64,000 nucleotides of DNA from a virus, in the IMG/VR virus record IMGVR_UViG_3300022752_003639, positions 74,458 to 138,457 of that record; one strand, written 5' to 3'. The translations under genes were made by a program, and so were the position numbers. Below the pieces are notes generated by a model. That model saw nothing but the letters and a program-made list of their open reading frames with translations. It searched no databases and was not told the DNA's origin. Shown here in pieces: positions 24,529-28,979 of this stretch (positions are counted from its first letter, which is position 1; each line of letters opens with the position of its first letter).

Positions 24529-24773
24529 TAATGGAAGATCAATTTAATACTAATGGTCAAGAGGGTGAAGTAACAACTGATTCAAATAATGAAGGGCAAA
24601 ATCAGATGCCTGAATTGACTATAAACGATTTAATTAATTGTAGAACAATCATAGATGTTGCTGTAAAAAGAGGAACATTTAGTGCTTCAGAAGTTGCCGG
24701 AGTAGGTGGTTTATACAATAAATTAGATCAGTTTATTGCGGCTACTACACCTGCAGAAAATAAGGATAACTAA
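24525..24773 (+). CDS. Hypothetical protein
   Basis: Coupled ORF. Confidence 0.6.
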   Translation: MIMEDQFNTNGQEGEVTTDSNNEGQNQMPELTINDLINCRTIIDVAVKRGTFSASEVAGVGGLYNKLDQFIAATTPAENKDN

Positions 24774-25417
24774 TGAAACATGTAGGAAAAATGAAGAATA
24801 ACTCTGCTAGAATAGCAGTTGTTTATAGAACTGTTCCAAATGAAGCAACTAATTGCCTTGTTGTAGGGACAAATGGTTTGCCAGATGCATATCACGACTC
24901 GTTAATGAGTGTGATTGAAAGTGACAGCGGCCAACAAGCCAACGAGTTAGCAGACATTTTGGCAACAAGACGATTTCCGGATGGCGAAGTCATGCTAAAC
25001 TGGTTACATACAAGAGGACATCTTAAGAAGGTTCCTACTAACCTTGTATTAATGACACCAAATTCTCAAACACAAGTTCCTTTGAATGAACTCAACAAAA
25101 TTATTGCTGAACAAAAAGGAGTAAGTATAGAGGACCTAAGCGTAACAGATGGAAGTCAAAAGAAAACTACTTCACGAAATAAAGAAGAAATAATTGTTCC
25201 TCCATCAGATGATCCTTCATATAAGAAAATGGTAGATGAAGCACCATATCATCCTGGATACGAAAGTGCTGTTGTAGATAACAAACCAGTAACTGCTTCA
25301 GATTTAAGGTCTATGGCAGATAAATTATTTAAAGAAGCACAGGCATTACGGAAAAAAGCCGAAGAACTAGAGCCAAGTAAAAAGAAATCTAGCTCTGAAA
25401 AGGTTAAAGCAGAATGA
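24773..25417 (+). CDS. Conserved hypothetical protein
   Basis: 214 aa; TAATG coupling. Confidence 0.65.
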   Translation: MKHVGKMKNNSARIAVVYRTVPNEATNCLVVGTNGLPDAYHDSLMSVIESDSGQQANELADILATRRFPDGEVMLNWLHTRGHLKKVPTNLVLMTPNSQTQVPLNELNKIIAEQKGVSIEDLSVTDGSQKKTTSRNKEEIIVPPSDDPSYKKMVDEAPYHPGYESAVVDNKPVTASDLRSMADKLFKEAQALRKKAEELEPSKKKSSSEKVKAE

Positions 25418-25596
25418 ATTTCCAGATAGGAGATTACGTTGAAAAGGTTTCTGGTTACAAATGGCCTGGCGTGGTAATAGCTGTATTCGATACCTTATCC
25501 GGTGAGCGAAGAGTAGTTGTAGAATGCACCGTGCCAGAAGTGAAAGGAGCACTTCATATCTACAATGAGCAACAACTAACCTTAAAAAATCAATAA
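25414..25596 (+). CDS. dfrB: R67/DfrB-like (type II, SH3-fold) dihydrofolate reductase homologue
   Basis: FQIGDYVEKVSGYKWPGVVI...VE...GALHIY aligns with R67 [20 protein letters not shown]...VE...GSVQIY. Its stop overlaps the thyA start. Confidence 0.8.
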   Translation: MNFQIGDYVEKVSGYKWPGVVIAVFDTLSGERRVVVECTVPEVKGALHIYNEQQLTLKNQ

Positions 25597-26477
25597 TGTC
25601 AGAAAGATCATATCTAAACTTACTAAAAGATATCTTAGAAAATGGCGAACATAGACAAGATAGAACAGGCGTAGGTACAATAAGTAAATTTGGCGGGCAA
25701 TTAGAATTCAATTTACAATTAGGATTCCCTGCTATAACTACAAAAAAACTTGCATGGAAATCAGTTGTATCTGAATTATTATGGTTTATTGAAGGTAGCG
25801 GAGATGAATTTAGGCTTAGAGAAATTCTACATGGTACTAGATATGCTGATAAGAAAACAATTTGGTCTGATAATGCCGCGGCATCTTATTGGACTTCTAA
25901 AAGAGTTGCAAGACATCCGGGTGATCTAGGTCGCATATATGGAGTGCAGTGGCGTAGGTGGCGTAAACCTATAATTAGAATTAATAAAGTCGTACTGGCC
26001 AATCACGACCAGCTTATTGAACTTGTTGAGTCTCTCAAAAAAGATCCATACAGTAGACGTCATATATTGTCTGCTTGGAACCCTGGAGAGCTAGAATTAA
26101 TGGCTTTACCACCCTGTCATTTACTAGCCCAATTTTATGTGTCATCTAATAACGAATTAAGTTGTCATATGTATCAACGTAGTGCAGACATGTTTTTAGG
26201 AGTGCCTTTCAATATTGCAAGTTACGCATTATTGACTCATATGCTTGCTAAAGTTACTGATTTAAATGTAGGGAAACTTATCATATCTTTTGGCGATGTT
26301 CACATATATAATAATCATATAGATCAAGTACAAGAACAATTAACGAGGACACCGTTAGCATTACCTACGCTAATTTTAAATGAGTCTATAGACGATATAA
26401 CTAGATTTAGAATGAATGATATAAATCTTGTAGACTATTCAAGTTACGATGCCATTAAAGCAGAAATGGCTGTTTAA
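25596..26477 (+). CDS. thyA: Thymidylate synthase
   Basis: DRTGVGT, ELLWFI, LGRIYG, ALPPCH and YQRSADMFLGVPFNIASY. Confidence 0.97.
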   Translation: MSERSYLNLLKDILENGEHRQDRTGVGTISKFGGQLEFNLQLGFPAITTKKLAWKSVVSELLWFIEGSGDEFRLREILHGTRYADKKTIWSDNAAASYWTSKRVARHPGDLGRIYGVQWRRWRKPIIRINKVVLANHDQLIELVESLKKDPYSRRHILSAWNPGELELMALPPCHLLAQFYVSSNNELSCHMYQRSADMFLGVPFNIASYALLTHMLAKVTDLNVGKLIISFGDVHIYNNHIDQVQEQLTRTPLALPTLILNESIDDITRFRMNDINLVDYSSYDAIKAEMAV

Positions 26478-27763
26478 ACCATTATTTCTACTTTACCTCT
26501 ATCACCTATAAAATCCTGTAGGGCCTTACCAATTACTGCACAAGGATGATCGCCGTCTTTAGCTGCTTCTGCATAACCTCTTACTGAACTGGTTACTAAA
26601 AGTTGCCCTTTGGTTATCGGGCCGATTACTTTGCATGGAACTTTACCTTTTAAAGCTACAAAAGGATGAGTTTGATTTTCACCAACAGAATCGTTCATTC
26701 TATAAGCTGGATTTTTAGATATTACTCCTGCTACAGATGTATTTGCTCTGATATCTGTTAAGGTAATTTCTTTTTCACCGCCAATTACAACAACCGTACC
26801 ATACTGATAAACATCATCTGCTTCATATCTTTCTGCTAGATCAGCATATAAGGCACTACTTGCTATGGTACTTAAAACTCTGGTTACCGGATTATATTGT
26901 AACCCGGTATTTGCATATACAACTGCTGAACTTGTACTTGTACTCAAAAACGGTACAAACCAATTTTTATTATTCGCTCCTGCTGCCGAAGATATTTCTG
27001 TATAACCCATGCTTGAAGCATATGTAGCTGTTGCGGCTGTTAGAGCATATAGGGATTCCGCTGCTGTTCCCCACAAGTACGTGCTTGTAGATAATCCTGT
27101 AATTTCTTTTCTTGTAGAACCTGTAGCAGGATCAGCTCCTAGTAATGTAATACCCCTTACTAATCTCTTTGTTATAGGATACAAAGGATATTCAGATGGG
27201 TTTTGAACTGATTCAGATTGTGGTAAATTATATGTATCTGCAGAGACTATGGCTATACTTTCTTCCGCACTTCCAATCACAGCCTTAAGATTATAGATAG
27301 GTAAGTCAAGAGAACTTACATTATATTCAAAATCTCCATGCCATTGCGCTCTTGTATCGGAACCAATAGGAGGACCAACTGTTATATAATCATTTCCATC
27401 ATATATGTTTAGTTGTTTTTTTGTTGTATTAAACCACAAGTCGCCTTGAACAGGTGATTTTGTAGACGTAGGAATATTTGTTTCAGAGCTAGATTCTAAA
27501 TTAGCGACACCTTTCCAATGCAGACTATCGTATGCATAAAACTTTTTCTCAGTTACATTGAAATAAAGTTGTCCTTCGATAGGTTTAGCAGGAGCTGTGG
27601 TATTTGCAAAATTCTCTAATAATTTTAAAAAATTTTCGTTTTGATATTCACCATAGCCTGCAAAATTTTTGCCTACAAAAAGTAAATCTGTAGTTTGATC
27701 TAAACTTGCATCCTGTACAGTAACTAAAATTGTTCCATTTGTTTTATTAAGAATATATGGCAT
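26474..27763 (-). CDS. Tail fibre/baseplate-attached protein with C-terminal autocleaving chaperone-like domain
   Basis: N-terminal GKNxxGYGEYxNENFxKLLENFA domain; C-terminal YADLAERY...GTVVVIGG...VALKGKVPCKV. Confidence 0.75.
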   Translation of the reverse strand: MPYILNKTNGTILVTVQDASLDQTTDLLFVGKNFAGYGEYQNENFLKLLENFANTTAPAKPIEGQLYFNVTEKKFYAYDSLHWKGVANLESSSETNIPTSTKSPVQGDLWFNTTKKQLNIYDGNDYITVGPPIGSDTRAQWHGDFEYNVSSLDLPIYNLKAVIGSAEESIAIVSADTYNLPQSESVQNPSEYPLYPITKRLVRGITLLGADPATGSTRKEITGLSTSTYLWGTAAESLYALTAATATYASSMGYTEISSAAGANNKNWFVPFLSTSTSSAVVYANTGLQYNPVTRVLSTIASSALYADLAERYEADDVYQYGTVVVIGGEKEITLTDIRANTSVAGVISKNPAYRMNDSVGENQTHPFVALKGKVPCKVIGPITKGQLLVTSSVRGYAEAAKDGDHPCAVIGKALQDFIGDRGKVEIMV

Positions 27764-27773
27764 TTTTTAATCC

Positions 27774-28979
27774 TTACACTACTATATTAGTCATAGTGAA
27801 ATTACCTAAATTAACTCCGACTGTTGTAGCAGTATATATCTCATATGGAGCCCATCTTGTAGTTGGTGTGCTAATCACTGTGTAATGCCTTACAGACGTT
27901 GTAACTGTGCTTAATGCAAAAACAGATCCTGTACTAATAGTTGAAATAATAGCATTACTTACTGTCATAACAAACGAAGATACTGTAGAAACTATAGTTT
28001 CAGGATATAAACTAACAGGACCTTGTACTATAAGTCCAGGCTGAATCGCAGTGTTTGTTGAAATTGCTATAGTCGTAGTGCCTGTACTTGAAAATCCTGT
28101 AGCTGTAGTAATTGCTACAACATTTTTAAAGTCGCAAACTACTCTGCAACTTGAACCTAATGGGTATTCTACTGCTCCTGGAGGGAATACCTTGGTTATT
28201 GCCGCTGCAATCGCAATATTTGCATTATCGTAATTAATCTTATTAGTTAAAGAATTAGCAGATACATTATCAACTTTACCAAATCTTGTAATATCATAAT
28301 AAGAGCTTTCTTGTCTTGCTCTGGTCAATATATTACTATCATTTTGGTATATATTACCTCTAATATTAATATCGTTGAATATAGTTAATCCTTTTACTAT
28401 ATTCAACGTTGTGTTAACACTGTAAAATACTGTTCCAGAACTTGCCTGCAGAGTAAAAGCACTTTCTGATATCATCCCAACATAATTTCCCCTAGTATAT
28501 AATACACTAGGATAATACTGTTGTGCAGAAACTACATTATCAAATATTTTAAATGTGGCTGTAGAAAATCCTATTGTTCCGTCTTGAGGATTGGTACCGG
28601 GTCCTACTAACCAAAATTGAGTACCATCATAAGCAAATGTTTGTTTTGTACTATCGTTAAACCAAAATTCCCCGGTTCCTACATTACTTGGCTCTACTGA
28701 ATCTACATAAGACCCTAAACTTGAATTCCAACTGGCTCCATCATATAATTTCAATCTTCCGGCAACGGTGTCAAACCATAGTTGACCTTGTTGAGGACTT
28801 AATGGTTGGGTGTCATCGGCGAAATTTGTTAACAATTTGACAAAATTATTATTAATATATTCGCCATAATTGTTAACATTTTTGCCAAGAAGATCCAAAC
28901 TTGTAGTAGTGTTGTCTATTTCACCAACATCTATTACTGTTAGTACTGAATCACCATTTTTATAAATTACGTAAGCCAT
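27774..28979 (-). CDS. Tail fibre/baseplate-attached protein (paralogue)
   Basis: Same N-terminal domain (GKNVNNYGEYINNNFVKLLTNFA, GQLWFD); Thr/Ser-rich. Confidence 0.7.
   Translation of the reverse strand: MAYVIYKNGDSVLTVIDVGEIDNTTTSLDLLGKNVNNYGEYINNNFVKLLTNFADDTQPLSPQQGQLWFDTVAGRLKLYDGASWNSSLGSYVDSVEPSNVGTGEFWFNDSTKQTFAYDGTQFWLVGPGTNPQDGTIGFSTATFKIFDNVVSAQQYYPSVLYTRGNYVGMISESAFTLQASSGTVFYSVNTTLNIVKGLTIFNDINIRGNIYQNDSNILTRARQESSYYDITRFGKVDNVSANSLTNKINYDNANIAIAAAITKVFPPGAVEYPLGSSCRVVCDFKNVVAITTATGFSSTGTTTIAISTNTAIQPGLIVQGPVSLYPETIVSTVSSFVMTVSNAIISTISTGSVFALSTVTTSVRHYTVISTPTTRWAPYEIYTATTVGVNLGNFTMTNIVV

Follow-up and report, generated by a model that had tools for sequence, protein, structure and literature searches.

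Thymidylate synthases of the ThyA type make deoxythymidine monophosphate (dTMP) and release dihydrofolate (DHF), and phage T4 carries a dihydrofolate reductase (DHFR) and thymidylate synthase pair in frd and td. Here we describe a gene for a 60-amino-acid (aa) homologue of the SH3-fold, type B DHFRs (DfrB), the family of R67 DHFR, that lies directly before thyA in IMG/VR virus record IMGVR_UViG_3300022752_003639; the window is the whole stretch of 64,000 nucleotides (nt) that was analysed, positions 74,458 to 138,457 of that record. The closest described systems come from a survey that sorted 386 DfrB homologues into five clusters (Lemay-St-Denis et al., Mol Biol Evol 2025; PMC12486381). Prediction of a DfrB1-like tetramer tracked DHFR activity, read out as trimethoprim resistance, in 139 of the 148 homologues tested. 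Activity was seen for 114 of 123 predicted tetramers, and the remaining 9 seemed insoluble or unexpressed (PMC12486381). Nothing in the active site is invariant across the homologues but a lysine or arginine at position 32, and a positive electrostatic potential in the tunnel is a further predictor of activity (PMC12486381). Clusters III–V are inactive, for example cluster V in Streptomyces phages (PMC12486381).

Two cluster II proteins have been characterized, A0A6J5PTB3 (motif LHIF), from an uncultured Caudovirales phage, and DfrB-TS (motif LHIY), a natural and bifunctional DfrB–ThyA fusion; both are tetrameric, active and trimethoprim-resistant (PMC12486381, with A0A6J5PTB3 in its Table 1). 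DfrB-TS has ordinary kinetics, with a kcat of 2.3 per s. A0A6J5PTB3 shows substrate inhibition by NADPH, binds two NADPH better than NADPH plus DHF, and was described as 'more of a binder than a catalyst' (PMC12486381). Each of the four viral homologues in cluster II comes from a genome that lacks FolA and has a ThyA gene nearby, in one case at a distance of 5 bp; the authors proposed that in viruses of this sort DfrB provides the DHFR activity needed to make dTMP (PMC12486381). Since this hypothesis is already in print for viral members of cluster II, the phage dfrB–thyA arrangement is not novel; the present gene is a further example of a known, recently published kind. So far, 20 viral DfrB homologues have been published (PMC12486381).

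The most likely mechanism for the 60-aa protein, to which we give a probability of roughly 85%, is that of a homotetrameric pore DHFR reducing the DHF released by co-translated ThyA. Profile homology, fold, a predicted tetramer, recurrent adjacency to thyA and the lack of FolA in the record all point to a phage that uses an SH3-fold DHFR in place of FolA, as an earlier note on this DNA had proposed. The features concerned are as follows:

25414..25596, + strand: DfrB/R67-type SH3-fold (type B) DHFR homologue, 60 aa, probably of the LHIY/LHIF 'cluster II' kind (profile homology, fold, motif)
25594..25598, + strand: TAATG junction of the dfrB-like stop and the thyA start, one base in common, read from the sequence
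25596..26477, + strand: thyA, ThyA-type thymidylate synthase, 293 aa (PF00303, phrog_160), with ATG at 25596-25598
24773..25417, + strand: 214-aa upstream open reading frame (ORF), function unassigned (ORF list; phrog_15894, of unknown function, E 2.4e-20)

The 60-aa ORF runs on the + strand from an ATG at 25414-25416 to the Q60 codon at 25591-25593 and a TAA at 25594-25596 (ORF list and sequence). Its position and the overlap of its stop codon with the thyA ATG had been reported before, and re-reading the coordinates from the sequence gave the same picture, with a single shared base. Stop/start overlaps of the TAATG type are a layout typical of translational coupling. A second overlap, ATGA at 25414-25417, is formed by the start of the 60-aa ORF and the TGA of the upstream 214-aa ORF and is absent from the earlier note. 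Downstream, the thyA product is full-length, matching PF00303 over profile positions 2-266 of 266 (341 bits, E 5.2e-102) and phrog_160 at E 2.3e-109; its translation shows DRTGVGT, ALPPCH (the Cys nucleophile motif), QRSAD and GDVHIYNNH.

Taken as a single sequence, the 60-aa protein bears a resemblance to R67 that is only suggestive. Against Pfam DHFR_2 (PF06442) it scores 13.9 bits (E 0.05, profile positions 23-58 only), below the gathering cut-off of 25 bits, and a scan of its own genome with PF06442 gives it 13 bits (E 0.011). A phmmer search of the PDB with the single sequence lists R67 chains first, at E 0.13-0.93; the best single match is 2p4t, the Q67H mutant of R67. At family level the resemblance is significant. 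A profile from an alignment of 55 short family members (A1) has R67 DHFR as its only significant match in the PDB, over the whole SH3 domain at E 1.2e-6 to 3.2e-5 (2p4t at 1.2e-6, wild-type 1vie at 2.8e-5; profile positions 7-62 against chain positions 7-60), and the next match is SSB at E 0.4. PF06442 is matched at E <= 1 by 41 of the 55 A1 members, the best at 7.5e-6. Weak Pfam matches to ATP-grasp_IQCH and the OB-fold tRNA_anti-codon were rejected, as they occur in 2/55 family members compared with 41/55 for DHFR_2. The earlier assignment to the DHFR_2/R67 family thus holds for the family profile, which finds R67 alone, and falls short for the single sequence. A 205-aa metagenomic member of the family, P0264, contains two tandem DfrB-like domains and reaches 26.7 bits, above the DHFR_2 cut-off.

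HMMER alignments to R67 chains pair K11 with K32, G14 with G35, W17 with W38, G19 with G40, E37 with E58, and L47-H48-I49-Y50, on the pore-lining B4 strand, with V66-Q67-I68-Y69; H62 of R67 falls on V43, past a two-residue insertion. The equivalents of K32, G35, W38 and G40, the replacement of VQIY by LHIY and the loss of H62, all claimed in the earlier note, are reproduced in these alignments, and Q67H, cited there as a characterized variant of R67, has a solved structure in 2p4t.

The AlphaFold2 model of the protein, made with A1, has a mean predicted local distance difference test score (pLDDT) of 95.9 and five strands (8-11, 19-26, 32-38, 47-50 and 55-57). In a Foldseek search of the PDB, ranks 1-7 are all R67 DHFR, with template modelling (TM) scores of 0.79-0.82 and 29-30% identity; PWWP, KOW and ribosomal SH3-like folds rank below them, so the unrelated SH3/KOW proteins that the earlier note had allowed for as best matches do not take that place. 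Among predicted viral structures (BFVD), rank 2 is A0A6J5PTB3, with a TM score of 0.89, a root mean square deviation of 1.2 Å and 42% identity. The protein would fit cluster II by this match and by the LHIY/LHIF motif. LHIY follows the nonpolar/polar/nonpolar/aromatic pattern that marks the B4 strand of catalytic DfrB homologues.

Prediction of a four-copy complex, the assembly that the earlier note had expected, gave a DfrB1-like tetramer with a score of 0.91 against 0.14 for the best control; runs agreed in 100% of contacts and partner pLDDT was >= 91. The mark for this score is reached by 20/30 proteins solved as same-chain pairs and by 1/23 solved as single chains, a calibration on two copies, not four. 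One predicted interface comprises residues 20-29/33-39/47/49, the face of the B2 strand, and the other sets 10/14-18 (loop L1, with W17) against 38-46 (loop L3). The predicted tetramer fits the published definition of a DfrB1-like assembly, with a B2 monomer–monomer face and L1/L3 dimer–dimer faces. K11, K16, K44 and H48 are located in or near the L1, L3 and B4 segments.

Set beside R67/DfrB1 (1vie, 2rk1, 2rh2, 2p4t), the protein has the same core fold and length and equivalents of K32, G35, W38, G40, E58, G64, I68 and Y69. It is predicted to form a D2-like tetramer through the same faces, and R67 is the sole significant PDB family for its profile. However, identity is only ~29-30%; VQIY has become LHIY (Q67 to H, compare the engineered 2p4t); H62, on the dimer–dimer face, is replaced by V43 after a two-residue insertion in L3, and W45 by V24; the 60-aa protein lacks the disordered N-terminal tail and falls below the PF06442 cut-off; and its gene is phage-borne and linked to thyA, whereas R67 is found on a plasmid or integron.

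With A0A6J5PTB3 and DfrB-TS it shares the SH3 core, the LHIY motif of DfrB-TS (LHIF in A0A6J5PTB3), the K32 equivalent and a predicted DfrB1-like tetramer, and like the published viral cluster II genes its gene adjoins ThyA in a DNA phage, with no FolA in the 138-kb record. In contrast to the cluster II enzymes, it consists of a single 60-aa domain and nothing more, compared with 174 aa for A0A6J5PTB3 and a fused protein in DfrB-TS; its gene overlaps thyA by one base where published cases are fused or spaced, and its source is a 138-kb fragment of a large freshwater-type phage at ~35% completeness. The metabolic logic is that of T4 frd–td, in which a phage DHFR beside thymidylate synthase sustains dTMP synthesis, but the folds are unrelated: a 60-aa SH3 tetramer here, a monomeric FolA in T4 and other FolA-type phage pairs. 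DHFR genes of the dfrA type are abundant in lytic phages (PMC12466917).

An ORF of only 60 aa that overlaps both neighbours and is unannotated in several GenBank phages could be a chance ORF, or a leader peptide of thyA, with no folded function. We regard this as extremely improbable. The family comprises 331 clusters at 90% identity in a word-indexed search and 690 representatives at 50% identity (E <= 1e-3) in an exhaustive search, and non-synonymous differences are low (pN 0.11-0.21 per site) compared with saturated synonymous ones (pS 0.66-0.93). Because of these hundreds of homologues and this pattern of differences, the 60-aa ORF is a real gene under strong purifying selection; the confident fold and the many contexts without thyA also speak against a chance ORF or leader. 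Residues were counted over 150 family representatives at 50% identity. The K32-equivalent position is K in 144/150 and R in 2/150, the W38-equivalent position is aromatic in 148/150, the equivalent of G40 is present in 150/150 and that of E58 in 147/150, and the B4 motif is LHIY in 86/150 and LHIF in 42/150. One metagenomic protein, P0218 (429 aa), has a C-terminal DfrB-like domain behind ~360 residues without a Pfam match; it was considered as a possible ThyA fusion and set aside, since its N-terminal part has no Pfam match.

The 138-kb record in which the window lies contains one ThyA and one dfrB-like gene, and no FolA, ThyX or RibD_C was found in it, at a CheckV completeness of ~35%. FolA and ThyX were likewise found in none of 31 related viral records and in none of five complete GenBank phages. 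The absence of folA elsewhere in the genome, which the earlier note had named as a check, thus stands for the 138-kb record and is unproven for the whole genome.

Linkage to thyA was surveyed at 80 IMG/VR loci of the dfrB-like gene, with thyA sought within 6 kb and gaps taken between tblastn matches. In six close relatives of the present locus (L016, L017, L018, L020, L021 and L029) dfrB and thyA adjoin directly in that order, with gaps of -4 to +27 nt, and a homologue of the 214-aa upstream ORF (195-219 aa) stands directly before the dfrB-like gene in all six. A Pfam scan of the 214-aa ORF itself gave no match. The same adjacency, with gaps of +10 to +17 nt, occurs in Rhizobium phages RHEph10 and RHph_N1_10 and in Pelagibacter phage Kolga, which makes three phage lineages with direct dfrB–thyA adjacency; ThyA identity across these lineages is 28-45%, so phages that are only distantly related have the same pairing. 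ThyA is encoded by each of the five complete GenBank phages with a gene of the LHIY/LHIF clade. The dfrB–thyA synteny that the earlier note had proposed to survey is therefore real in three lineages, yet it extends to 6/80 loci only, with the two genes 135 kb apart in one large relative (G013): the thyA-coupled layout is a recurrent, lineage-specific specialization and no family-wide rule.

The GenBank examples are largely unannotated. RHEph10 (JX483881.1 61483-61638; L008:2501-2656) has a DfrB-like ORF with the motif GALHIY 10-16 nt before its annotated thymidylate synthase, and the same unannotated GALHIY ORF lies 10-16 nt upstream of thymidylate synthase in RHph_N1_10 (MN988505.1 88676-88837; L006:2501-2662). 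In RHph_N1_15 and RHph_N2_6, similar tblastn matches fall where the records annotate nothing. In Kolga, gp36 (L001:2713-3165), a 150-aa 'hypothetical protein', stands directly before gp35, thymidylate synthase, and has two domains: an N-terminal part that weakly resembles DUF1599 ('nucleotide modification associated domain 1'; sub-threshold, E 4e-4) and a DfrB-like C-terminal part with GVLHVY.

In the mechanism we favour, four SH3-like protomers would form a dimer of dimers, with B2 strands as the monomer–monomer faces and L1 and L3 loops as the dimer–dimer faces, around one central pore that would be lined by four LHIY strands, with K11 at the pore mouths. The pore would hold NADPH and DHF next to each other, and proximity would bring about the transfer of hydride. 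The dfrB-like gene would be read from the same message as phage thyA, with translational coupling, and its product would return the DHF released by ThyA to tetrahydrofolate, thereby making dTMP synthesis for phage DNA replication independent of a FolA-type enzyme. We infer the DHFR activity and trimethoprim insensitivity of the 60-aa protein from published assays of its LHIY/LHIF relatives.

Several points weigh against this mechanism. For the protein, the single sequence stays below the DHFR_2 cut-off; the R67 tetramer is solved in the PDB, so a high complex score shows likeness and may partly be memory, and that score is calibrated on two copies; and in A0A6J5PTB3 a histidine in place of Q67 accompanies substrate inhibition by NADPH, although the kinetics of LHIY DfrB-TS are ordinary. 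For the genome, the record is ~35% complete, so folA could lie in the unseen part. For the linkage, thyA lies within 6 kb of the dfrB-like gene at only 6/80 loci; in G013, a 264-kb relative, 135 kb separates the dfrB-like gene from thyA, and the slot ahead of thyA is taken by an unrelated 98-aa ORF instead of dfrB; and ThyA, ThyX and FolA are all missing from the 11 near-complete phage genomes (42-64 kb) that carry an intact copy, so the selected role cannot be strictly tied to phage ThyA. The K32 equivalent is kept in all 11 of these copies, and the motif is LHIY in 10 and LHVY in 1. Whole-record scans of the thyA-less phage records found no PF00303 or PF02511. Neighbouring ORFs of 274-285 aa at thyA-less loci were considered as diverged thymidylate synthase or ThyX and rejected; the representatives scanned, a Band 7 protein and three ORFs without a Pfam match, do not resemble a thymidylate synthase.

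The points on the protein bear on whether it is an enzyme at all. It could instead be a non-catalytic SH3-like module for binding or oligomerization, for example a dinucleotide binder, with a DfrB fold like that of the inactive clusters III–V and an incidental thyA neighbour. SH3 folds are usually binders, inactive DfrB homologues are known from phages (cluster V, in Streptomyces phages; PMC12486381), the nearest assayed relative, A0A6J5PTB3, bound two NADPH better than NADPH plus DHF (PMC12486381), most family members lie away from thyA and many carrier phages have no thymidylate synthase. Even so, we think a purely binding role very unlikely: the protein is predicted to assemble as a DfrB1-like tetramer, retains the K32 equivalent and shares LHIY with an enzyme whose kcat is 2.3 per s, and the published predicted tetramers that were inactive, 9 of 123, were seemingly insoluble or unexpressed (PMC12486381).

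The points on linkage bear on what an active DHFR would be for. The link to thyA might be an accident of a cassette slot, with the enzyme selected for the host-wide tetrahydrofolate pool (host ThyA flux, purines, formyl-Met). The 11 near-complete phages with an intact copy and no ThyA or ThyX favour such a role, as does the finding that, in large-phage fragments whose expected sizes are similar, the gene occupies at least three slots: in front of thyA, in front of a MazG-like gene and after a DNA ligase gene, the last followed by an unknown gene of 430-460 aa. In G013 the dfrB-like gene is next to the DNA ligase gene, and a different small gene fills the slot before thyA, which looks like a swap site for small genes. 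On the other hand, direct dfrB–thyA adjacency (-4 to +27 nt) arose or persisted in three distant phage lineages, a natural bifunctional DfrB–ThyA fusion exists, and ThyA is present in 5/5 complete GenBank phages of the clade; on balance we judge an accidental link unlikely. Any DHFR reduces DHF made by ThyA, so supply of phage ThyA, as in the mechanism we favour, and of the host pool are not exclusive in one cell. In phages that carry the gene without a thymidylate synthase the enzyme would be useful too, presumably via host ThyA and the folate pool.

Around these slots, the stretch of G013 that corresponds to the present locus has a 242-aa ORF and then the small 98-aa ORF before thyA (G013:C1:112976-114908; L099:1477-3409). 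The N-terminus of this 242-aa ORF, two genes before thyA, is visibly similar, by eye, to the 214-aa upstream ORF of the present locus. A MazG-like pyrophosphohydrolase (PF01503 PRA-PH, E ~1e-9 to 1e-10) is encoded within three ORFs of the dfrB-like gene at 18 IMG/VR loci and directly downstream at 14 (for example L049:5571-5936 and L013:6182-6544). These neighbours echo the fusions of NTP (nucleoside triphosphate) pyrophosphohydrolase and DfrB mentioned in PMC12486381.

Clade size in uncultured phage contigs, cassette-like mobility and presence in phages without thymidylate synthase go slightly beyond the published survey. The LHIY/LHIF clade, for which the counts are at least 690 clusters at 50% identity and 150 confirmed IMG/VR stretches, may be a far larger phage-centred family than the 20 published viral homologues, a slot-hopping single-gene cassette with a role beyond phage ThyA; we hold this wider picture only tentatively and think it more doubtful than probable. 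If it were true, the role could be to sustain or take over the host tetrahydrofolate pool, or to bind NADPH or another dinucleotide, and the thyA-coupled form would be one repeated specialization.

For the idea that DNA phages with ThyA and without FolA use a primitive SH3-fold DfrB for folate recycling, the present locus adds a clean case, with a gene layout typical of translational coupling. Members of the clade are plentiful among uncultured phage contigs, and annotation routinely overlooks them. The clade scores below the Pfam cut-off, and in several GenBank Rhizobium phages the gene carries no annotation. Its relevance to antibiotic resistance is only indirect. By inference from assayed relatives, the LHIY/LHIF clade is probably intrinsically insensitive to trimethoprim. 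The suggestion in the earlier note of a phage reservoir for clinical DfrB resistance genes is unsupported: identity to R67 is ~29-30%, and the gene belongs with the LHIY/LHIF clade, not with VQIY. The VQIY motif is found only in cluster I, the home of clinical dfrB1-10, and a report cited in the same study holds that the clinical dfrB genes came from Burkholderiales hosts (PMC12486381). No integron or transposon context was seen around the dfrB-like gene, and nothing there indicates mobilization.

Three GenBank phages carry genes annotated 'R67 dihydrofolate reductase': Rhizobium phage RHEph16, Ochrobactrum phage ZX86 and Caudoviricetes sp. MW202697. These are phage-borne members of the DfrB family like the present gene; unlike it, they have the VQIY motif and Pfam scores of 55-82 bits, and because of this motif and these strong scores they are cluster I-like. 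Within 3 kb on each side of the three genes there is no annotated thymidylate synthase.

A scan of bacterial genome contigs with a smaller family alignment (A2) gave nine matches, including Bradyrhizobium, Xanthobacteraceae, Hyphomicrobiales, a Paraglaciecola metagenome-assembled genome (MAG) and a Verrucomicrobiota MAG. Both of the copies inspected are prophage-like, one with genes for deoxycytidine monophosphate (dCMP) deaminase and a phage-type methyltransferase, the other with a terminase and a tail fibre gene. In Bradyrhizobium sp. NZ_JBNPTO010000021.1 (L090:2741-4869) the copy follows the dCMP deaminase gene at ~650 bp and immediately precedes the gene for a phage-type DNA methyltransferase, and thyA was not found within 4 kb of it.

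A megablast search of the 2.3-kb region against GenBank phages gave no match. Beyond thyA, on the minus strand at 26474-28979 of the window, two neighbouring ORFs (429 and 401 aa) run towards thyA, and the end of the first overlaps the thyA stop by 4 nt. The two have similar N-terminal segments (..GKN..YGEY.NNNF.KLL.NFA..) and look like paralogous fibre-like structural genes.

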